Below, in pieces: positions 43,566-61,100 of a stretch of DNA of 64,000 bases. This DNA is from Alphaproteobacteria bacterium (GTDB lineage Bacteria; Pseudomonadota; Alphaproteobacteria; UBA828). The stretch spans positions 3,712,001 through 3,776,000 of the forward strand of contig CBDEFM010000002.1 of NCBI GenBank assembly GCA_965237415.1, in the 5' to 3' direction. The position numbers and the translations under genes were made by a program. The number at the start of each line of letters is the position of its first letter. Position 1 is the stretch's first letter. The notes beneath the pieces were generated by a model. It made no database searches. It was not told the origin of the DNA and saw nothing but the letters and a program-made list of their open reading frames with translations.

Positions 43566-44752
43566 TAGTCACCTGAATCTAAAGTTCGTGGCATAAGTTT
43601 TGATCGACGCGGAGGCAGAAGCGTTTGACGGCGGCGAGGATGTCGTCGGCCGATTTGGTCCACCTGAAGGGCTTGGGGTCTTGGTTGTGCTTTTCGATGA
43701 AGGCCCGGATATCGGCTTCGAGCTGGCGGGTGGAGGTGTGCACGCCGCGCTGCAACTGCTTTCGCGTCAACTCGGCGAACCAGCGTTCGACCTGATTGAT
43801 CCAGGACGCCGACGTCGGCGTGAAGTGGACATGCCAGTGCGCTCGCCGCGCCAGCCAAGCCTTGACCGCCGCGGTCTTGTGAGTGGCGTAATTGTCCATG
43901 ACGATGTGGACGTCCAGCCCCTCGGGGACCGAGCGGTCGATCTCTTTCAGGAAGTCGAGAAACTCCCTGGCCCGGTGGCGCCTGTAGCACTTGCCGATGA
44001 CGCGGCCCGTGGCGACATCGAGGGCTGCGAACAGCGAGGTGGTGCCGTGACGCTTGTAATCGTGCGTGCGCCGCTCAGGCATGCCCGGCAACATCGGCAG
44101 GACCGGCTGTGTACGGTCGAGCGCCTGGATCTGGCTCTTCTCGTCGACGCAGAGCACCAGCGCGCGGTCCGGCGGCGAGAGATAGAGCCCAACGATGTCG
44201 CGGACCTTGTCCACGAAGTGCGGATCGCCCGACAGCTTGAAGGTCTCCGAGCGGTGCGGCTGCAAGCCGAAGGCGCCCCGGATGCGCCAGATCGTCGTGT
44301 GCGAAAGGCCGCTTTCCCTGGCCATCGAGCGCAACGACCAATGGGTGGCGTCCGCCGGCGTCGCGCTGAGCGTCCGCTCGACAACCTTGGCCACCTGATC
44401 GTCCGTGAGCGTTCGCGGCCGTCCCGGCCGAGGCTCATCCGACAGCCCCTCGATGCGCTCCTTCAGGAAGCGGCGGCGCCACTTGCCGACCGTGTGCTCG
44501 TGCACGCCGATCTCGGCGGCCACCGCCTTGTTGGTCAGGCCGTCTGCGCAGCGCAGGATCATGCGGCAGCGATCGGAGATCGAGCGCGCGACCCGGCGCC
44601 GTCGAGCCTGACGCTCAAGATACGACCGCTCTTCATCGCTCAGAACCAAGACCGCCATCGGCCGGCCAGTACCACGCGCCATCGCAATGACCTCCACAGC
44701 CACACCACGATGAACAGCCTACACTGAGCCTTACTTCAGTGCCAGATGACTA
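43566..44752 (-). mobile_element. IS630-family insertion sequence, TA at both ends
   Basis: Ends TAGTCACCTGAATCT and TAGTCATCTGGCACT; full transposase inside. Confidence 0.92.
43579..44703 (-). CDS. IS630 transposase
   Basis: [35 protein letters not shown]. Confidence 0.95.
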
Positions 44753-44969: not shown

Positions 44970-45420
44970 TTGGCCGAACCGTTGCGCTATCGTCGTCTGT
45001 GTGCGGAGCACCAAGTGGCCGACCGCGTCCGTGAGCTGCTCGACACGATGGAGCTGTCGCCGGACTTGATGCTGAGGCGGCCCAATCAGCTCTCAGGCGG
45101 TCAGCGGCAGCGGGTCGGTATCGCCCAAGCCCTCACGCTCGACCCCGAGATCATTATCGCAGACGAGGTGACATCGGCCCTCGACGTCACGATCCAGGCA
45201 TAGATACTCGAGCTCTTCAAGCGGCTGCGAAGAGAGATCAGGTTGACGCTGATTCTCATTTCCCACGATCTTGGTGTCGTCGGTCACCTCAGCGATACAG
45301 TGAAGGTGCTACGGCACGGACGGCTCGTGGAATACGGCGCAGCGGACGATGCGTTCACGCGGCCACGCGACCCTTATACGAAGACCCTACTCGACTCGAT
45401 TCCAAGGCTGACTCGCCGCC
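44970..45420 (+). pseudogene. Dipeptide/oligopeptide ABC ATPase C-terminal remnant
   Basis: LSGGQRQR...[19 protein letters not shown]...ISHDL...DPYTKTLL with in-frame TAG at 45201. Confidence 0.85.
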
Positions 45421-45510
45421 TCGCGGCAACCGGTCGACTGGGAAAGCCGTCGCGACAAGGCTGGGAGAGATCGGTTCCATTGCCCAGCCGATCCATTCCC
45501 GCTGCCGCGC

Positions 45511-47331
45511 GCGATAGACGGCAATGCCATGGCCGTTGCGGAAGCTGCGTACCCGCGCTTCCGTCCAGGAGTTGCCTCGCCCGGTCTTCTTGCCGAGGCG
45601 GTTGAGCGTGGCCGCGATCCCGCCATCGGGCAGCTGCCTCGCCAGGCCACGAACCAGGTCGACCACCTCGGCGCTCGCCGCCCATCGATGCTGTCCCCTA
45701 CGGTTGCGTGGCACGCTCAGGCGCGTGTGGTCGCCGCCACGCCAGTGGAGAAGAAGGTCGATGCGGCCATCGGCCAGCGTGACGACGATCTCCGCGAGCA
45801 CCGACCGGAGGATGCCCTTGCGCGTCTCGGCGGTTGCATCGGGGTGCGTCCACGCCGTCGCAAGATCGTTACCCAGCGCCATCAGCCGCCCCTTCTCCTT
45901 GCACGACGGGACCTCGGGACGGGCGGCCGCGTTGGTGGCGAGCCGCTCCTCCTGCCGGCGCACCTCCGCCAGCCGGTCGTTCCACCGTCGCTCCAGCTCG
46001 GCCGCCACCAGGCGGTTGGCGGGATCGACGGTATCGTATTGGCGCTGTGCGAGTTCGGCCTCGTAGCGCGCCTGTGTCAGCGCCAGCTCCGCCTGCCGCC
46101 GGGTCTCGGTGTTGTCGCTCTCTCGCATCTCGATAGCGGCCAGCGCCGCCTCGACCCCGAGCGGGCACAGCAGTCGCAGCACGGCGTCGCCGACGGCGGC
46201 ATCCACCCGCAGGCCGCCGAAGCCGATGCAGCGCCCGGTTCCGTGGTTGACGTGTGCACCGTGGCAGCCGTAGCGGACGCAGTACCCCTTGGTCCCGCTG
46301 TAGTGGACATGCACGCGTCGGCCGCAGTGTCCGCAGCGCAGCAGGCCCGCAAGCAGCGCATCGCCTCGGCGGACGGCGCCCCTTGCCATCAGGCCCCGGC
46401 AGTTGGCGTTGTCGGCGATCAGCCGCTGGTTCCTCTCGAACTCGTCCCAGGAAACGTAGCCGTCGTGGTGATCCCGGATCAATACGTCCCACTCCGAGCG
46501 GTCGCGGCGGAAGCCGCGGGTCACGCGCTTGCGCCCGTTCTCGACGGTCACCCGGCTTTCCGTCCGGCCGAACGCGTACGCGCCGCCGTATACCGGGTTG
46601 GTCAACAGCTTGTGGACGGTGCCGTAGACCGGCGGCTTCCAGACAATGCGGCGCTCCTCGCCAACGATACTCACGGCCGGCAGCGGCACGTCCTCCTGCC
46701 TCAGCCACAGGTGAACCTGGCGGATGCTCCGGAACTCCGCGAACTTGCGGAACACGAGATCGATCGCCTCTCGCACGCGCCGATCGGGATCCTTGGCGAT
46801 CCGGTCGCGCCGGACCTTCACGTAGCCCACCGCGACGGTGAGGAACAGCTCGCCGCGGGACGCCTTCAGGCGAAGCGCTTCGAGCGAGCGCTGGCGCAGC
46901 GTCGAGAGCTCCATCTCCGACAGCGTCCCCTTCATACCGAGCAACAGCCGGTCGTTCGGCAGGCGAGGATCGTACAAGCCGTCATCGTCGCCCAGCAGAC
47001 AGCCCACAAGCGCGCAGAACTCCAGCAACGTGTGCCAGTCACGGCCGTTTCGAGCGAGCCTCGAAGCCTCCAGCGACAGCACGATGCCGACACGCCCTTC
47101 GCAGATCGACACCAGCAGCCGTTCGAAGCCCGGCCGCGACGTCCCGCCGCCGGAGCGGCCGAGATCCTCGTCGATCACCACGGGCTCGTCCCAGCCCAGG
47201 CCGCGGGCCCGATCCGCAAGTCCATACTGACGGCGGCGGCTCTCGTGATTGTTCCGCAGCTGATCCGGCGTCGACTGCCGGATGTAGACGACCGCGTCGC
47301 GCGCCAGGTGGTCAGGCGCGATCTTGTTCAT
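45511..47331 (-). pseudogene. Large serine recombinase, C-terminally truncated
   Basis: YIRQST, DEDLGRSG, SRLARN, CGHC zinc ribbon, coiled coil; diverges from copy 2 after GIAVYR. Confidence 0.88.
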
Positions 47332-47497
47332 CGCCTGCCTCCTTCTCCGTGGCCGTCCCGTCCGCCATGTCCTCGGTCGGGTTCGTCGCCGCTTCGAGCA
47401 GCAGCGCCGCAAGCATCGGGATCACCGCCCCGCGCATCGCCGGCGTCAGTGTCGGACCCGGCTCCAGCTGGTCCAGAAGGTCCCCCTGTCTTCCCAT
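47312..47497 (-). CDS. Small ORF2 of recombinase element copy 1
   Basis: MGRQGDLLDQLEPGP...AALLLEAA...EAGDEQDRA, conserved in both copies, GGAG upstream. Confidence 0.6.
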   Translation of the reverse strand: MGRQGDLLDQLEPGPTLTPAMRGAVIPMLAALLLEAATNPTEDMADGTATEKEAGDEQDRA

Positions 47498-47798
47498 GTC
47501 GCTCTCCCAAGTCCATGTGGGAGGGCAATGGTAGAACGGCGTCAAGCACCGAACGGAGGTCGCGCAAAGCGACCAGCGCGACGCGCGGCCGATCCGTCAC
47601 CGTCATCGCCGACGCGTCCGGGGAACACATCCAGGTCGGTATCTGCGCCAATGTGCCGTCCGGCTGGCGGACGACGTAGATCATGATCCCTTTGAAGCGG
47701 TGGCGCCGAACCACCTCCACGCGCTGGCCCGTCCGCGGGTGGAAGGGGTAGTGGATCTTGACCGGATCGCCCTGATAGCGGGCAGTATGTGGCTGTTC
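47328..47798 (-). CDS. ORF1 of element copy 1 (YPFHP-motif protein), open to the att junction with no start
   Basis: EQPHTARYQGDPVKIHYPFHPRTGQ...IPTWM; stop overlaps the recombinase ATG. Confidence 0.7.
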   Translation of the reverse strand, partial: EQPHTARYQGDPVKIHYPFHPRTGQRVEVVRRHRFKGIMIYVVRQPDGTLAQIPTWMCSPDASAMTVTDRPRVALVALRDLRSVLDAVLPLPSHMDLGERHGKTGGPSGPAGAGSDTDAGDARGGDPDACGAAARSGDEPDRGHGGRDGHGEGGRR

Positions 47799-48235
47799 CG
47801 ACCGGCACGGGCAAGACCCATGTCGCCCTGGGGCTCGGGCTGGCCGCCTGCCAGAGGGGCCTCTCTACGGGCTTCACCACGGCCGCCGCGCTCGTGCACG
47901 AGTTGATGGAAGCCCGCGACGAGCGCCGCCTCCTGCGGCTCCAGAAGCAGATGGTCGCCTGCACGCTGCTAATCATCGACGAGTTGGGCTTCGTGCCGCT
48001 GAGCAAGACCGGCGCCGAGCTTCTGTTCGAGCTGATCTCGCAGCGCTACGAGCGGGGCGCCACGCTCATCACCTCCAACCTCCCCTTCGACGAATGGACC
48101 GGGACCTTCGGCTCCGAGCGCCTGACCGGGGCGCTGCTCGACCGTCTCACCCATCACGTCAACATCCTCGAGATGAACGGCGACAGCTACCGCCTCAGCC
48201 AGAGCCGCGCCCGCAGAAACAGCGCCGATAGCTGA
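47798..48235 (+). pseudogene. istB: IS21 istB C-terminal half (Walker A onward)
   Basis: PTGTGKTH, LLIIDELG, RYERG, TSNLPF, LLDRLTHH, GDSYR. Confidence 0.92.
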
Positions 48236-54684: not shown

Positions 54685-54883
54685 CCTGCTTATCCGTGTC
54701 ACTCCGCCTGTGGGGATGTATGTTCTCAATATGTTCTGTATGAGGGGGTCACGGTTATGGGGTTCAAGGTTGCATCGCGCGTGCGTGGTTTGAGCGACGA
54801 GGCGTTTCGCGAGGCCTTCGGTACCGAGGAGCAGTGCCGCGCGGCGCTGCTCCGGCTGCGCTGGCCGGACGGCTTCCTCTGCC
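54685..54883 (+). pseudogene. IS1595-family 5' fragment (copy b), cut by IS21
   Basis: MGFKV...LSDEAFREAFGTEEQCRAALLRLRWPDGFLC. Confidence 0.8.
54722..54736 (+). promoter_or_regulatory. Alphaproteobacterial LexA box
   Basis: GTTC-TCAATAT-GTTC, 20 nt upstream of the transposase ATG. Confidence 0.65.
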
Positions 54884-55908
54884 TGTTAACGGCGGAGGAA
54901 TAATGCTCCACGCGGAGCGATCGGACGGTCCGGTCGCGGCGGCGCAAAAATGCGCCAACCATGGTCCTTTGTCGGTTGCGACGAGGGGCGGGGGATGTAC
55001 GGCGTGGAGCTCTATGCGGCGGTTCGACTGGCGGTTGTCGACGAGGGTTTGAGCCATCACGAGGCGGGCCGTCGGTTCGGCATCGACCGTCGCACGGTGA
55101 AGAAGATGCTGAGCTACTCGGCGCCGCCGGGCTACCGCCGGACGAAGCCGGTCAGGCGGCCCAAGCTGGACGGGTTCACCGGCATCGTCGACGCGATCCT
55201 GGAGGCGGACACGGATCCGGATGTGCCGCGCAAGCAGCGCCACACGGCGCACCGGATCTTCGAGCGGCTGCGGGACGAGTACGGGTTCACCGGCGGCTAT
55301 ACCATCCAGACCGTGTGAAAACGTCATTGAATTCAGATTTTCGAGTAAGTCTGCTTGATTTCTGAAAAGTGCAGCCTGCTAAGTCATTGATTTCATTAAC
55401 ACTGAAAATTCAACCAATGGGCTGAAATCACATTTCGAGCGATTCTCCGACGTTTTGACACAGTCTGCATCGTGAAGGACTATGTGCGTTCCCGGCGGCA
55501 ATCGACGCGCGAGGCCTTCGTTCCACTGCATCACCCGCCGGGCCATGCCCAGGTCGACTTCGGCGAGGCGGTGGTGGAGCTGCGGGGGCAGCGGGAGAAG
55601 GTCGCCTTCTTCTGCCTGATCCTGCCCCATTCCAACGTCTGGTTCGTCAAGGCCTATCCGAGGGAGACGACCGAGGCCTTCCTCGACGGCCATGTCAGCG
55701 CCTTCGCCTTCCTCGGCGGGGTTCCGCGCTCGATCCTCTACGACAACACCACCCTTGCGGTGGCGCGGATCCTGGGCGACGGCACGCGCCGCAGGACGCA
55801 GGCGTTCTCACATCTTCAGTCGCACTACCTGTTCCGCGACCGCTTCGGCCGGCCCGGCAAAGGCAACGACAAGGGGAAGGTGGAGGCCCTGGTGAAGACG
55901 GCGCGGCG
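54884..55908 (+). mobile_element. IS21 copy A: left end plus truncated, MITE-interrupted istA
   Basis: TGTTAACGGCGG end; istA from 54995 nearly identical to copy B, cut at KTARR. Confidence 0.9.
55307..55467. mobile_element. 161-bp MITE with IS1182-like ends and 4-bp TSD CATC
   Basis: CAGACCGTGTGAAAACGTC...GACGTTTTGACACAGTCTG; CATC at 55303 and 55468; empty site seen in istA copy B. Confidence 0.9.
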
Positions 55909-56090: not shown

Positions 56091-56528
56091 TTATTCGGAC
56101 GGGCGCTGGCGTCGCGATCGGCTCTGCCTGAGCCGGTAGCTGTCTGCGTTCATCTCCAGGATATGGACATGGTGGGTGATGCGGTCGAGCAGCGCGCCGG
56201 TGAGGCGCTCGCTGGCGAAGACCGTTGTCCATTCCTGGAAGGGCAGGTTTGAGGTCACGATTGTGGCGCCGTTTTCGTAGCGCCGGCTGAAGACGTCGAA
56301 CAGCAGTTCGCTTCCGGTCTGCGAGAGGGGCACGTAGCCGAGCTCGTCGACGATCAGGAGATTGACCCTGGCGAGCTGGTCCTGGAGGCGGAGGAGCCTC
56401 TTCTCGTCGCGCGCCTCGATCATCTCGTGGACCAGGTGAGAGGCGGTGGTGAAGCGCACGGAGAGGCCCTTCTGGCAGGCGGCAAGCCCGAGGGCGAGCG
56501 CGACATGCGTCTTGCCGACGCCTGACGG
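56091..56528 (-). pseudogene. istB: istB C-terminal half
   Basis: PSGVGKTH, LLIVDELG, TSNLPF, LLDRITHH, DSYR. Confidence 0.92.
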
Positions 56529-56998
56529 AACAGCCACACACTGCCCGATACCAGGGCGGTCCGACGAAGATCCACTACCCCTTCCACCCCCGCACGGGCC
56601 AGCGCGTGGAAGTGGTTCGGCGCCACCGCTTCAAGGGGACCATGATCTACGTCGTCCGCCAGCCGGATGGCACGCTGGCGCAGATACCGACCTGGATGTG
56701 CTTTCCAGACGCGGCGGCGATGACGGTGACGGATCAGCCGCGGATCGCGCTGGACGCCCTGCGCGACCTCCGTTCGGACATCGACGCTGTTCTACCATCG
56801 CCCTCCCGCATGGATTTGGGAGGGCGACATGGGAAGACAGGGAGAGCTGTTGGAACTACTGGAGCCGGGTCCGGCACTCACGCCGGCGATGCGAGGGGCG
56901 GTAATCCCGATACTGGCGGCGCTGCTGCTCGAAGCGGCAGCGAACCCGACGGAGGACATGGCGGACGGGACGGCCACGGAGAAGGAGGCGGGCGATGA
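56528..56998 (+). CDS. ORF1 of element copy 2 (YPFHP-motif protein); start codon located at 59073
   Basis: EQPHTARYQGGPTKIHYPFHPRTGQ...; TGA overlaps the recombinase ATG. Confidence 0.72.
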   Translation, partial: EQPHTARYQGGPTKIHYPFHPRTGQRVEVVRRHRFKGTMIYVVRQPDGTLAQIPTWMCFPDAAAMTVTDQPRIALDALRDLRSDIDAVLPSPSRMDLGGRHGKTGRAVGTTGAGSGTHAGDARGGNPDTGGAAARSGSEPDGGHGGRDGHGEGGGR

Positions 56999-57014
56999 AC
57001 AAGATCGCGCCTGA
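56829..57014 (+). CDS. Small ORF2 of element copy 2
   Basis: GGAGG RBS; MGRQGELLELLEPGP...EAGDEQDRA. Confidence 0.6.
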   Translation: MGRQGELLELLEPGPALTPAMRGAVIPILAALLLEAAANPTEDMADGTATEKEAGDEQDRA

Positions 57015-59054
57015 CCATCTGGCGCGCGAGGCGGTCGTCTACATTCGGCAGTCGACGCCGGACCAGCTGCGGCACAACCACGAGAGCCGCCGTCGTCAGT
57101 ACGGCCTTGCGGATCGGGCTCGCGGTCTGGGCTGGGACGAGCCCGTGATTATCGACGAGGATCTCGGCCGCTCTGGAGGCGGAACGTCGCGGCCGGGCTT
57201 CGATCGGCTGCTGCTGGCGATCTGCGAAGGGCGCGTCGGCATCGTGCTGTCGCTGGAGGCTTCGAGGCTCGCTCGAAACGGCCGCGACTGGCACACGCTG
57301 CTGGAGTTCTGCGCGCTTGTGGGCTGCCTGCTGGGCGACGAGGACGGCTTGTATGATCCTCGCCTGCCGAACGACCGTCTATTGCTGGGTATGAAGGGGA
57401 CGCTGTCGGAGATGGAGCTCTCGACGCTGCGCCAGCGCTCGCTCGAGGCGCTGCGCCTGAAGGCGTCCCGTGGCGAGCTATTCCTCAGCGTCGCGGTGGG
57501 CTACGTGAAGGTCCGATGCGACCGGATCGCCAAGGATCCCGACCGGCGCGTGCGTGAGGCAATCGATCTCGTGTTCCGCAAGTTCGCGGAGTTCCGGAGC
57601 ATCCGCCAGGTCCACCTCTGGCTGCGGCAGGAGGAAGTGCTGCTGCCGGCCGTCAGGATCGTTGGCAAGGAGCGCCATATTGTCTGGAAGCCGCCGGTCT
57701 ACGGCACCGTCCACAAGCTGATGACCAACCCCGTCTACGCCGGCGCGTACGCGTTTGGCCGGACGGAGAGCCGCGTGACCGTCGAGAACGGACGCAAGCG
57801 CGTCACGCGCGGCTTTCGCCGCGATCGCGCGGACTGGGACGTGTTGATCCGCGATCACCACGAAGGCTACGTTTCCTGGGACGAGTACGAGAGGAACCAG
57901 CGTCTGATCGCCGACAACGCCAACTGCGGGGCTTGATGGCAAGGGGCGCCGTGCGCCGCGGCGATGCGCTGCTCGCGGGCCTGCTGCGCTGCGGACACTG
58001 CGGCCGGCGTGTGCACGTCCACTACAGCGGCACCAAGGGGTACTGCGTCCGTTACGGCTGCCAAGGCGCGCATGTCAACCACGGCACCAGGCCGTGCATC
58101 GCCTTCGGCGGCTTGCGCGTGGATACTGCGGTCGGCGATGCAGTGCTGCGACTGCTATCTCCGCTCGGCGTCGAAGCGGCGCTGGCCGCCATCGAGACCC
58201 GTGAGAGCGACAACGCCGAGATCCGACGGCAGGCGGAGCTGGCGCTGACGCAGGCGCGCTACGAGGCCGATCTGGCACAGCGCCAATACGATGCCGTCGA
58301 TCCAGCTAACCGCCTTGTCGCGGCCGAGCTGGAGCGACGGTGGAACGACCGGCTGGCGGATGTGCGCCGGCAGGAGGAGCGGCTCGCCGCCACTGCGGCC
58401 GCCCGTCCGGAGGCACCGTCATGCGCGGAGAAACAGCGCTTGATGGCGCTGGGCGATGATCTCTCGACGGCGTGGTCGCGCCCCGATGCCACCGCCGAGA
58501 CGCGCAAGGCCATCCTGCGCGCGGTTCTGGAGGAGATCGTCGTCACGCTGGCCGATGGCTGCGTTGACCTTCTTCTCCACTGGCGTGGCGGCGACCACAC
58601 GCGTCTGAGCGTGCCGCGCAACCGTAGGGGACAGCATCGCTGGGCGGCGAGCGCCGAGGTGGTCGACCTGGTTCGCGGACTGGCGAGGCAGCTGCCGGAC
58701 GGCGCGATCGCGGCCACGCTCAACCGCCTCGGCAAGAAGACCGGGCGAGGCAACTCGTGGACGGAAGCGCGGGTGCGCACCTTCCGCAATAGCCGTGGCG
58801 TTGCCGTCTTCCGATCAGGCGAGATGGCGGAGCGGGGCGAGCTGACGCTGACCGATGCCGCCGCACGGCTCGGCATCAGCAAGATGACGGTGCTGCGGTT
58901 GATTGCGGGCGGCACAATCGACGCCACGCAGGTGTGCAAGGGAGGGCCATGGGCCATCCCGGAGGCGCTGATAGACGCCCTGTACGGCACTGACCTGCGC
59001 CAATCGCGCCCGCTAACAGCCGATCCGAACCAGGAACAGCTGGATTTTCAATAA
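56995..59054 (+). pseudogene. Large serine recombinase with a 1-bp frameshift near 57927
   Basis: YIRQST catalytic Ser, CGHC zinc ribbon, coiled coil, C-terminal HTH LTLTDAAARLGISKMTVLRLI; TGCGGGGCTTGA versus TGCCGGGGCCTGA in copy 1. Confidence 0.9.
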
Positions 59055-59089
59055 CGTAGCGAGGTGTGCATTATGCACTCGGACTCGAG

Positions 59090-59418
59090 GGCCCGAGCAG
59101 GATCGCGTTCTCGCGCCGCTCGATCCACTCGCAGCGCGCCAACTCCAGCACCTGCGCCTTGTTCAGCGCGGGGATGGCCTTGAAGTCGAAGCTGTCGAGG
59201 CTCTTGGCGACCGGGAACTTCGCCGCCTTGATGCGCCGCTCGACCATGCGCCGTTCGCGATCGATCAGTTCCAGCTCCACCAGCCGGGCCAGGAACTGAA
59301 CATGATCCAGGGCCTCGGCCGCGCACTGGCGCGCCAGTTTCTCGTACTCGCGCAGAAAGGTCGGCAGCTTCAGCTTCTTCAGATGATGCTCGAGCAGGAT
59401 GCGCGGCGCCTCAGCCAT
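59090..59418 (-). pseudogene. istB: istB N-terminal half
   Basis: LKKLKLP, RRIKAAKFP..KSLDSFDF, ENAILLGP then element sequence. Confidence 0.92.
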
Positions 59419-60907
59419 GGCCGGCGGCCAGCAGGGTGGCGTAATCGGCGCTACGGGTGGCGGCGACGAAGGGCTGGGGGAGGTGCGGATAGCGTGTCAG
59501 GTCGAGACGGGCCGGCCGCTTCTCGATGCGCGCCAGCAGCAGGTGCTTGACCGCATCGAAGCCGATCACGCGCCGCTTCACCGCGTCCTGCACCGCGGCC
59601 GTCACCTGGCGCTCCGGAAAGTCCTCCAGCAGGCGCAGCACCTGGATGTATTCGCGCTTGCCGCGCGGCCCGAAGCGGGCTTCGAGGAGGCGGCGCAGCG
59701 TGTCGAAGGCCGGATCGAGCTTCCACCCCCGCAGCGGCGCCGCCTGGTCCAGGGCGCCCGGCTTCCTCTCCAGCAACGACAGATAGTGCAGCGGGTCGTA
59801 GACGACGTCGCCGCGGACATAGGAGCGCCTATGGCGGGCGACGATCTCGGCGCCGAGCGCGATCTCGACCCGGTCGACATAGCCCTTGATCGTCACCTTC
59901 TTGTGGGCGTGCACCGCCGGCGCCGAGTAGTCCACCAACCGGTAGCGCACCAGGGCCGTCGAGGAGACCTGGCCCGGCACATGCTCGCAGGCCTCGAAGG
60001 GAGAAGCCGGCAGATCGCGCAGGGCGTCGAGATCGGCGAGCAGCGCCGCCGCCTGCTCCCCTGCCTCCAGCGCGTCGAGCCGCTCCAGGCACCGAGCCAT
60101 CAGCCGCTCGTTCAGGACCGACAGGTCATGCACCTTCGGGATCGGAACCATGAACCGGCGCCGCGCCGTCTTCACCAGGGCCTCGACCTTGCCCTTGTCG
60201 TTGCCCTTGCCGGGCCGGCCGAAGCGGTCGCGGAACAGGTAGTGCGACTGAAGATGTGAGAACGCCTGCGTCCTGCGGCGCGTGCCGTCCCCCAGGATCC
60301 GCGCCACCGCAAGGGTGGTGTTGTCGTAGAGGATCGAGCGCGGAACCCCGCCGAGGAAGGCGAAGGCGCTGACATGGCCGTCGAGGAAGGCCTCGGTCGT
60401 CTCCCTCGGATAGGCCTTGACGAACCAGACGTTGGAATGGGGCAGGATCAGGCAGAAGAAGGCAACCTTCTCCCGCCTGCCTCCGACCTCGACCGTCGCC
60501 TCGCCGAAGTCGACCTGGGCATGGCCCGGCGGGTGATGCAGTGGAACGAAGGCCTCGCGCGTCGATTGCCGCCGGGAACGCACATAGTCCTTCACGATGG
60601 TGTAGCCGCCGGTGAACCCGTGCTCGTCCCGTAGCCGCTCGAAGATCCGATGCGCCGTGTGACGCTGCTTGCGCGGCACGTCCGGATCCGTGTCCGCCTC
60701 CAGGATCGCGTCGACGATGCCGGTGAACCCGTCCAGCTTGGGCCGCCTGACCGGCTTCGTCCGGCGGTAGCCCGGCGGTGCCGAGTAGCTCAGCATCTTC
60801 TTCACCGTCCGGCGGTCGATGCCGAACCGCCGGCCCGCCTCGTGATGGCTCAGACCCTCGTCGACAACCGCCAGTCGAACCGCCGCATAGAGCTCCACGC
60901 CGTACAT
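59411..60907 (-). CDS. istA: IS21 transposase IstA, intact
   Basis: HTAHRIFERL, PG..QVDFG, YDN, KGKVE. Confidence 0.95.
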   Translation of the reverse strand: MYGVELYAAVRLAVVDEGLSHHEAGRRFGIDRRTVKKMLSYSAPPGYRRTKPVRRPKLDGFTGIVDAILEADTDPDVPRKQRHTAHRIFERLRDEHGFTGGYTIVKDYVRSRRQSTREAFVPLHHPPGHAQVDFGEATVEVGGRREKVAFFCLILPHSNVWFVKAYPRETTEAFLDGHVSAFAFLGGVPRSILYDNTTLAVARILGDGTRRRTQAFSHLQSHYLFRDRFGRPGKGNDKGKVEALVKTARRRFMVPIPKVHDLSVLNERLMARCLERLDALEAGEQAAALLADLDALRDLPASPFEACEHVPGQVSSTALVRYRLVDYSAPAVHAHKKVTIKGYVDRVEIALGAEIVARHRRSYVRGDVVYDPLHYLSLLERKPGALDQAAPLRGWKLDPAFDTLRRLLEARFGPRGKREYIQVLRLLEDFPERQVTAAVQDAVKRRVIGFDAVKHLLLARIEKRPARLDLTRYPHLPQPFVAATRSADYATLLAAGHG

Positions 60908-61024
60908 CTCCTGCCCCTCGTCGCAACCGACAAGGGACCATGAGTGGCACAATTTTGCGCCGCCGCGACCGGACCGTCCGGTCGCTCCGCGTGGAGCATT
61001 ATTCCTCCGCCGTTAACAGGGGAG

Positions 61025-61100
<76 letters not shown>

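Follow-up and report, generated by a model that had tools for sequence, protein, structure and literature searches.

A putative split translation start in an insertion-sequence-like large serine recombinase element that interrupts istB

Background

Serine integrases need to tell the chromosome from the free circle, and the known answers to this problem are directionality factors and promoters formed at the joint of the circle. The locus described here raises the question of how a small mobile element could express a first gene that has no start of its own as long as the element is integrated. It lies in a stretch of 64,000 nucleotides, referred to throughout as the window, from an Alphaproteobacteria bacterium (GTDB lineage Bacteria; Pseudomonadota; Alphaproteobacteria; UBA828; assembly GCA_965237415.1, contig CBDEFM010000002.1, positions 3,712,001 to 3,776,000 of the forward strand), and coordinates are counted from its first letter. 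The element, of 2,563 bp when the right-hand copy of its crossover dinucleotide GA is counted once, occupies positions 56526-59088 and carries on the plus strand a first open reading frame with a DUF5372 domain (ORF1), a short overlapping frame (ORF2) and a large serine recombinase, with no cargo. The body of ORF1 begins at the left end, and a sequence resembling a Shine-Dalgarno (SD) site, an ATG and five further codons are found at the right end, where they would come into frame with ORF1 only once the two ends are joined. We consider circle-dependent expression by such a split translation start, in an element that resembles an insertion sequence (IS), to be the probable though by no means certain explanation of this arrangement.

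The element, its ends and its target

The insertion point lies in the Walker-A codons of istB in a unit of IS21 type on the minus strand, comprising istA (59411-60952) and an istB gene split in two, and the element is antisense to istB. Two uninterrupted istB genes (empty sites) in the same genome help to fix the boundaries, and removal of the element restores the Walker-A reading frame of istB exactly. Contigs of all three DNA-type sequencing runs (3/3) join 56523 to 59087, omitting 2,563 nt and sharing the two letters GA. The sides of this joint are only 19-29 nt long at a likeness threshold of 90, which makes it modest evidence when taken alone; however, it is counted here because it matches both the exact Walker-A restoration and the 19-nt arms that lie symmetrically about GA and have a GCA-N-TATG-like motif in common. 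The crossover is one of 2 nt (GA), without target duplication. The original prediction had placed the ends at 56528 and 59075, and the contig joints and empty istB sites move them to approximately 56526 and 59088 (Table 1). The resulting size fits the repeat contigs of ~2.55 kb in which many relatives are found.

The recombinase matches Resolvase (PF00239) with 80.6 bits against a cut-off of 23.3, Recombinase (PF07508) with 46.9 bits and the zinc ribbon Zn_ribbon_recom (PF13408) with 36.6 bits, the last two being split by a frameshift in this copy and contiguous in a second copy within the window. These domains, together with the 2-bp crossover without target duplication, are those of a large serine recombinase; an intact frame, also expected of the class, is lacking in this copy. 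An excisionase-like helix-turn-helix (HTH) had been proposed for the C-terminus, and it is borne out by matches to HTH_17 in Pfam (31.9 bits, cut-off 27) and to TIGR01764 in NCBIfam (32.2 bits, cut-off 28.8). Being small, present in several copies and coding only for its own movement, the element can be described as an insertion sequence in the broad sense.

The genome contains three full copies, one truncated copy and three fragments elsewhere. The full copy on contig C1 matches that of the window throughout the element, its only two differences falling in the last seven bases of the compared right flank. In the copy at C2:3638126-3640925 there are two substitutions within the element, and its right flank departs from that of the window copy from 59116 on, which, on the sequence comparison, would fit a separate insertion or recombination. 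The second copy in the window has lost its 3' part, with HTH_17 and the right end, beyond ~45516; past that point (45300-45520) the sequence overlaps an ATP-binding cassette (ABC) transporter-like ATPase frame on the other strand (44970-45605).

A first gene without a start of its own

The match of ORF1 to DUF5372 (PF17342) is a modest one, 26.5 bits against a cut-off of 25, and covers profile positions 1-43 of 78 only. The frame is nevertheless under purifying selection, with 202, 138 and 431 changes at codon positions 1, 2 and 3 among 21 close pairs; for comparison, the recombinase shows 450 changes at the third position versus 52 and 75. The conserved domain opens with an HY-x-FHP motif about 15 codons past the left end. 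The first in-frame start of the window copy is a GTG at 56606, behind this motif, from which a frame of 56606-56998 would be read. Amongst 40 parsable dereplicated representatives of the family, 36 have no ATG, GTG or TTG between the left arm and the motif, four have a GTG and none has an ATG.

The structure predicted for ORF1 has a predicted local distance difference test (pLDDT) score of 80, with a core above 90, and forms an SH3-like barrel of four to five strands followed by a C-terminal helix. Foldseek returned no match to this fold at E <= 0.001, the weak rows being SH3, KOW and Tudor-like barrels, and no sequence relative of ORF1 was detected in the PDB (best E 0.087).

Standard annotation overlooks the first gene of the element, because ORF1 has no start in the integrated form. 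In RefSeq, a copy on an Azospirillum plasmid has ORF2 and the recombinase annotated and ORF1 absent; the table omits pseudogenes, and ORF1 may be one of them. A search by shared words and length class through 5.8 billion protein clusters recovered 14 ORF1 proteins, whose N-termini fall in the flank in five, in the arm in two, one or two residues before the motif in three and after the motif in four.

The start at the right end and its conservation

The distance of 18 nt between the recombinase stop (TAA) and the right-end ATG, part of the original prediction, is read directly in the sequence. Relatives of the element were collected by a scan with the C-terminal part of the recombinase against one genome per species, in which the best 80 of 137 relatives were used. 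Their hosts are Alpha-, Beta- and Gammaproteobacteria, Vicinamibacterales, Binatia and others. Several are commonly present in one genome, several relatives reaching many copies each, and many of them are contigs of ~2.55 kb, as expected of a collapsed repeat. ORF1 followed by the recombinase start was found in the same order at 73 loci, which were dereplicated to 54 representatives.

The ATG lies exactly 18 nt past the recombinase stop in 30 of the 41 representatives in which the stop can be placed, and in one a GTG takes its place; most of the remaining right ends have the same motif with a shifted recombinase stop. A purine-rich AGG or GAGG is seen 7-9 nt upstream of the ATG in nearly all right ends.

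Whether this ATG would be in frame with ORF1 can be read wherever the interrupted istB can be rebuilt. For this purpose the Walker-A glycine was taken from the match to the N-terminal part of istB and the GK[ST] codons from the left flank, in the target frame only; rebuilding the target by the longest open frame or by unrestricted enumeration gave no discrimination in DNA rich in G+C. After joining, the right-end ATG is in frame with ORF1 at 25 of the 26 loci with a rebuilt istB (18 of 19 when dereplicated), the exception, L019, being one base short. These loci should be read as one conserved design and not as 25 independent events, because the distances from the ATG to the joint are identical. 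The earlier claim that ORF1 obtains a start codon only from the right end, once the ends are joined, agrees with these loci and with two elements of the more distant type described below. In the joined form ORF1 and the recombinase together cover all but 18 of the 2,563 nt (59055-59072), so that the predicted circle is almost wholly coding (99.3%), again as proposed.

A further proposal had concerned GTGCATTATGCAC at 59066-59078. It is indeed a perfect 6-1-6 palindrome around the ATG; however, as a recombinase-binding feature it does not hold, being found in 1 of 28 aligned right ends and thus peculiar to this lineage. Palindromes of this 6-1-6 kind are not rare in the window (42, against a shuffle mean of 26.9). 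The recombinase is expected to bind the DNA around the ATG as an arm of a symmetric attachment (att) site and not as a palindrome.

It may be added that the integrated right-end SD and ATG would open a frame of 36 codons (59073-59183) running antisense into istB. If there were a promoter in the 3' end of the recombinase gene, antisense RNA would also extend into the IS21 genes.

An open path from ORF1 to the recombinase

The stop of ORF1 overlaps the start of the recombinase as ATGA (56995-56998), as had been noted from the sequence, and this overlap is kept at 62 of 73 loci and in 45 of 54 representatives. ORF2 is read across the tail of ORF1, one nucleotide downstream of the ORF1 frame, and ends inside the recombinase gene. 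Its own SD, described earlier as GGAGG, is part of a GGGAGGG lying 5-11 nt upstream of its start, and both frames are open in the window's second copy as well (47312-47720, minus strand).

Loss of the ORF2 frame in homologues had been named as part of the outcome that would count against the original prediction, and ORF2 proves to be conserved across the family. In 51 representatives an SD-like motif precedes it in 50 (by regular expression) and the start is ATG in 48; the stop lies 17 nt (5-20 nt in a few cases) into the recombinase gene in all of them. Its sequence has a conserved beginning, RQ-x-D-L-F/L, then a hydrophobic helix, and closes with an acidic D-E-Q-D-H/R. The changes within the overlap number 229, 207 and 161 at ORF2 positions 3, 1 and 2 in the 21 pairs, and 13, 3 and 1 between the window's two copies. 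On these counts selection on amino acids, weak as it is, acts on ORF2, and the tail of ORF1 is not conserved as a protein. Entropy by phase across the 54 representatives was flat in the overlap, probably through misalignment.

Although its amino acids are not conserved, the ORF1 frame stays open here. Over the last 55 codons of ORF2 it is free of stops at 65 of 70 loci. In the representatives it is open in 48 of 51, against 19.0 expected when ORF2 codons are redrawn synonymously from each element's own recombinase codon usage; for the third frame the corresponding figures are 6 observed and 14.8 expected. The Poisson-binomial tail for 48 of 51 is approximately 1e-23 with the lineages treated as independent, a figure that overstates the case because they are related. 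Since the observed number is so far above the expected one, selection holds open a route by which ribosomes could pass from ORF1 to the ATGA. Judged from the sequences, such an open path is what translational coupling would need.

A second type of element with DUF5372

A search with PF17342 found the domain in 5 of 301 genomes sampled from the phylum, the source genome included. Two more DUF5372 genes are present in the source genome, with full-length matches at E 1e-22 and 1e-20, and both adjoin a recombinase that is 35-44% identical to that of the window element. We refer to elements of this kind as family B, and to the window element and its nearer relatives as family A. The gene set of family B comprises DUF5372, an HTH_32/HTH_28 protein of 154 aa and the recombinase.

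An intact family-B element (L106, C2:2282640-2286023) lies in sense within an open frame that continues beyond it, five shared letters being counted once. Its right end consists of GGAGG, seven bases and an ATG, which the recombinase stop overlaps as ATGA, and on joining this ATG is in frame with DUF5372 with no intervening stop. Another genome (G481) holds three family-B copies, 77% identical in the recombinase, whose stop is found 10 nt beyond the ATG. Two of these copies have six letters in common at both junctions, and the ATG is in frame without a stop in all three, two of them unambiguously. A further family-B locus (L108, in genome G183) was set aside for the frame test, its left flank being unrelated to the transposase gene on its right. 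The other family-B locus of the source genome (L107, C2:3089700-3092100) is decayed and lies within istA of an IS21 element.

The left arm of family B mirrors the purine-rich stretch and has no ATG at the mirrored place; the family-B ATG is therefore not simply part of a symmetric site. The purine-rich stretch, to judge by its place in both arms, may act both as a recombinase site and as an SD. The split-start layout, as read from the sequences, is common to family A (~70 loci) and the distant family B.

Proposed expression from the joined form

We propose that the att site has been placed inside the 5' end of the element's own first gene. In the integrated state ORF1 would be untranslatable, because its SD, its ATG and five codons are stranded at the right end, opposite the body of the gene at the left, and ORF2 and the recombinase would be translated from their own SD and start. 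Excision between attL and attR would yield a circle of 2,563 bp with a whole ORF1. Ribosomes entering at the joined start would then cross the ORF2 start in another frame, reach the ATGA and hand over to the recombinase. The circle would thus make ORF1 and a coupled recombinase, we infer more of it, and probably less ORF2, and this state of expression would favour insertion. The main idea of the original prediction, a recombinase coupled to ORF1 and boosted in the circle, is retained in this scheme, which also offers a reason for the double-coded stretch. The sequences themselves show the anatomy, its conservation, the selection on the open frame and the target; the circle, initiation at the ATG, the coupling and the parts played by ORF1 and ORF2 are inferred from them.

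A broader proposal, which we hold tentatively and consider rather doubtful, is that DUF5372 elements generally have their att site interposed between the start codon of the first gene and its body, as a translational switch of topology. In the chromosome ORF2, as a directionality factor, and the recombinase would be made and would lead to excision; in the circle ORF2 would be suppressed and insertion would follow, no regulator protein or change of promoter being needed.

Points against the proposal and alternative explanations

A number of observations weigh against expression from the joined form. No go-back (attP) joint was seen in the contigs of four runs, only joints of the skip type, and the pattern of joined ends gave 0 matches in viral contigs and 0 in five multi-copy genomes; absence from contigs does not, however, speak against a circle, because contigs drop rare forms. 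No sigma-70-like site was found in 56300-59300 by a consensus scan of the linear sequence, which is crude for this kind of organism. All three full copies in this genome carry a 1-nt deletion in the recombinase. The recombinase has a strong SD of its own, so that coupling is not required for its translation, and the hairpin at its start is no stabler than shuffles (z -0.61). The right-end ATG lies within an att arm whose motif recurs in the other arm of family A, and its conservation could stem from recombinase binding alone. The four codons that follow it have no third-position pattern (entropies 0.97, 1.39 and 1.31), and the agreement of 25 loci in 26 is, on the sequence evidence, close to a single evolutionary event.

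The scan of the linear sequence likewise gave no promoter built from the two ends, and no terminator was found by consensus. The single match of a metagenome scan for the joined form (L093, with a gap of 25-29 nt where 24 were expected) turned out to be an unrelated membrane-protein gene, and the scan was uninformative. In the RNA run X15, 17 of 30 bins were covered and one contig starts at 56526; this is a repeat-boundary effect and gives no evidence of transcription or of the joint.

One alternative, to which we assign not quite an even chance, is that the element is a dead passenger in this genome, where no circle is formed and copies have spread with their IS21 hosts or by homologous recombination. 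The deletion, near 57927, was overlooked in the original prediction; it is evident from the inverted-repeat arms of the two window copies, which are offset by one base there, the second copy reading through. Its presence in all full copies, the identity of the C1 copy within the element and the two differences of the other, the fourth copy without a right end and the three fragments are what a dead passenger would leave. The three frameshifted copies may be inactive, or may depend on recombinase supplied in trans, and other recombinases of the family in the cell could supply it. An extra C behind 57926 restores the frame at 18/18 depth in run X2, at 10.2/10.2 in X7 and at 78.5 of a summed 680.9 in X1; the deletion is therefore a strain variant or consensus error and not a trait of the family. 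The diverging flank of the copy on C2 would also fit separate movement, or recombination, at that site.

Shortened forms of the recombinase gene were seen too. A joint from 57918 to 59048 in runs X1 and X7, one side of which is 28 nt, omits 1,129 nt of the gene, and in two other genomes (L110, L111) the C-terminal half of the recombinase comes immediately after DUF5372. These are possible internal-deletion derivatives.

We regard it as unlikely that the SD-like stretch and the ATG at the right end are merely an att arm bound by the recombinase, with ORF1 starting at a non-canonical codon, by read-through from the flank or rarely from chance starts. The motif common to the two 19-nt arms about GA, the mirrored purine-rich stretch of family B, and the fixed geometry and lack of periodicity behind the ATG are all what an arm would be expected to show. 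An arm alone would not explain, however, why ORF1 is under purifying selection when a canonical start is lacking in 36 of 40 representatives and an ATG in all of them. Nor is the SD-like stretch mirrored in the left arm of family A, and family B keeps its right-end ATG, in frame, with no ATG in the left arm. One lineage has replaced the ATG by GTG, and the few public gene calls for ORF1 start at differing places. That the open tail of ORF1 and the ATGA simply follow from high G+C content and from the coding of ORF2, with no coupling at all, is highly improbable: the tail varies least at third positions (161 changes versus 229 and 207) and the recombinase has its own SD and an ordinary fold at its start, but neither point accounts for an ORF1 frame open in 48 of 51 against 19.0, a third frame open in 6 against 14.8 or an ATGA kept in 45 of 54.

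ORF2 as a candidate partner of the recombinase

ORF2 has no match in Pfam or NCBIfam, bears no likeness to the HTH protein in the same place of family B (hhalign probability 0.2) and falls only into unnamed clusters in the ESM Atlas (0.84-0.85). A complex of ORF2 with the C-terminal part of the recombinase was modelled on the cognate L013 pair, each with its own alignment. The score was 0.74, against 0.00 for the best of three controls; the mark applied to such models is reached by 116 of 157 solved complexes and by 2 of 215 mismatched pairs. Agreement between runs extends to at least 96% of contacts, and the pLDDT of the partner is at least 63. ORF2 residues 14-41 are placed against residues 73-89, 165-197 and 216-222 of the C-terminal part, positions which, by reading of the sequence, flank the coiled-coil segment at its foot. 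The model supports binding of ORF2 to the recombinase. The phiC31 factor gp3 is reported to bind at the foot of the coiled coil (PMC5814800), and in view of the modelled contacts at that place ORF2 is a candidate recombinase partner or directionality factor.

In a few copies (P0003, P0013 and L062) ORF1 and ORF2 lie in a single frame, giving a DUF5372-ORF2 fusion. Such copies may be frameshift mutants that gene callers tend to pick up, or they may hint at an occasional fused product.

Targets and distribution of the family

Pieces of IstB_IS21 (PF01695) that break at Walker A are found in the flanks of 18 representatives, the N-terminal part (profile 2 to ~91) on the right in 17 and the C-terminal part (profile 103-230) on the left in three. 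They come from a scan of 76 flank pieces, each the longest open frame, in which misses are expected. The IstB targets are only 25-38% identical to one another, and the insertion is always antisense (L013-L092). In other lineages the gene entered codes for a tyrosine recombinase (L080), an IS66 transposase (L065) or another serine recombinase (L047). Matches are present in 217 records of a plasmid collection, and the family is often met with in bacteria from soil and the sea, and on plasmids of rhizobia.

Relation to known systems

Lyras and Rood (2000) reportedly found that the circle joint of Tn4451 makes a promoter for tnpX, the recombinase being expressed from the circle. TnpX of Tn4451 and Tn4453 is a large serine recombinase that excises a circle with a 2-bp crossover (passages of PMC3158075). 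The element described here is like these in its large serine recombinase and 2-bp crossover, with the circle a predicted one. In Tn4451 a promoter is assembled, whereas in the present element an accessory gene has its ribosome-binding site and start codon parted from its body. Unlike Tn4451 and Tn4453, moreover, it has no cargo, measures 2.6 kb, is present in several copies and targets istB.

Circles and tandems of IS911, IS2, IS30 and IS21 have joined ends that form a junction promoter for their own recombination genes. The present element is likewise small, without cargo and able, on our proposal, to create an expression signal by joining its ends; however, those circles belong to DDE transposases and split a promoter between -35 and -10, and here it is a coding sequence that is split. 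In the integrative and conjugative elements ICEKp1, ICEclc and ICEEc1, end-joining changes expression of the integrase gene and biases the outcome towards integration (PMC13023037, in part). Those elements use tyrosine integrases and a transcriptional switch, in contrast to a serine recombinase and the initiation of translation of an upstream, coupled gene. In archaeal "suicidal" integrases of the SSV1 type the att site lies in the integrase's own gene, which is split on integration and whole in the circle (sections of PMC8371274). There it is the tyrosine integrase gene that is split, whereas here the recombinase is whole and an accessory gene is separated from no more than its ribosome-binding site and first seven codons.

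The gin element of Bacillus cereus is a non-phage element whose serine recombinase GirC needs a small factor, GirX, for excision (PMC5595907, as excerpted). ORF2 is of a size similar to this and other small directionality factors of serine integrases, and has been modelled on the recombinase. The gin element interrupts a sporulation gene and is excised in development, and the element described here sits in istB. The IS607 family consists of insertion sequences with a serine recombinase and neither terminal inverted repeats nor target duplication (parts of PMC6188088). The IS607 TnpA is, however, a small serine recombinase with an N-terminal helix-turn-helix, and the order of domains sets the present protein apart from it: about 686 aa, with Resolvase, Recombinase, zinc ribbon and a C-terminal HTH_17.

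In the literature searched, with most subscription journals outside the searches, no paper with the term DUF5372 was found, nor, among the matches listed, one linking a large serine recombinase with IS21 or istB. A split-start circle switch had no description for this kind of element in the literature searched. The family appears to be one undescribed in that literature, IS-like and preying on other mobile elements.

Features and neighbouring sequence

The features of the element, its host gene and the second copy are collected in Table 1. Nearby, a second, partial and inverted copy of the IS21 istA gene pairs 54882-55908 with 60159-61020, the arms being 96-97% complementary. A tRNA-Ala(CGC) gene (61025-61100) abuts the outer end of the IS21 unit, and an ORF of 374 aa on the minus strand (43579-44703) looks by eye like an IS630-type transposase.

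Table 1. Positions of features of the element and its surroundings in the window
Feature	Position	Strand	Remarks
Second copy	45516..47800	-	88-90% identical; left end in a related istB; recombinase frame intact
istB C-terminal piece	56091..56525	-	From Ser-Gly-Val-Gly-Lys-Thr-His; open frame 56091-56537 (...SGVGKTH...)
Left GA crossover copy, attL	56524..56525	+	Contig joint and empty istB sites
Element	56526..59088	+	Empty istB sites, contig joints, contig size of relatives
Left att arm	56526..56546	+	Reverse complement of G-N-GCA-N-TATG-like motif; also ORF1 codons
ORF1 body (DUF5372)	56526..56998	+	Stop TGA 56996-56998 overlaps the recombinase ATG
Pfam DUF5372 match in ORF1	56570..56698	+	Conserved domain extends to ~56815
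ORF2	56829..57014	+	61 aa, own SD and ATG; offset by one nt downstream from the ORF1 frame; last 17 nt within the recombinase gene
Recombinase, N-terminal part	56995..57936	+	Resolvase and Recombinase domains; ends at TGA 57934-57936 through the frameshift
Frameshift site	57926..57927	+	One C short against the second copy and contigs of X2, X7 and part of X1
Recombinase, C-terminal part	57927..59054	+	Zn ribbon, coiled-coil region, extension, HTH_17; other frame; stop TAA 59052-59054
HTH_17 / excisionase-family DNA-binding domain	58842..58979	+	Recombinase C-terminus
SD-like GAGG	59061..59064	+	8 nt upstream of the ATG
Right att arm	59066..59086	+	Contains the ATG and the lineage-specific palindrome 59066-59078
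Proposed ORF1 start	59073..59088	+	ATG 59073-59075 and codons as far as the joint; shares the frame of 56526 onward only once the ends are joined
Right GA crossover copy	59087-59088	+	
istB N-terminal piece	59089..59418	-	Up to first Gly-Pro-Ser of Walker A; open frame 59071-59418 (...LLGPS)

Implications

Serine integrases with short, well-defined sites are sought as tools for genome engineering. Considering the range of its targets, the family appears to parasitise mobile elements and to single out their most highly conserved codons. If the proposed split start is true, it would represent a very compact control of directionality, in which the joint itself completes a coding sequence, and the overlapping frames could turn that joint into a choice between two small proteins.

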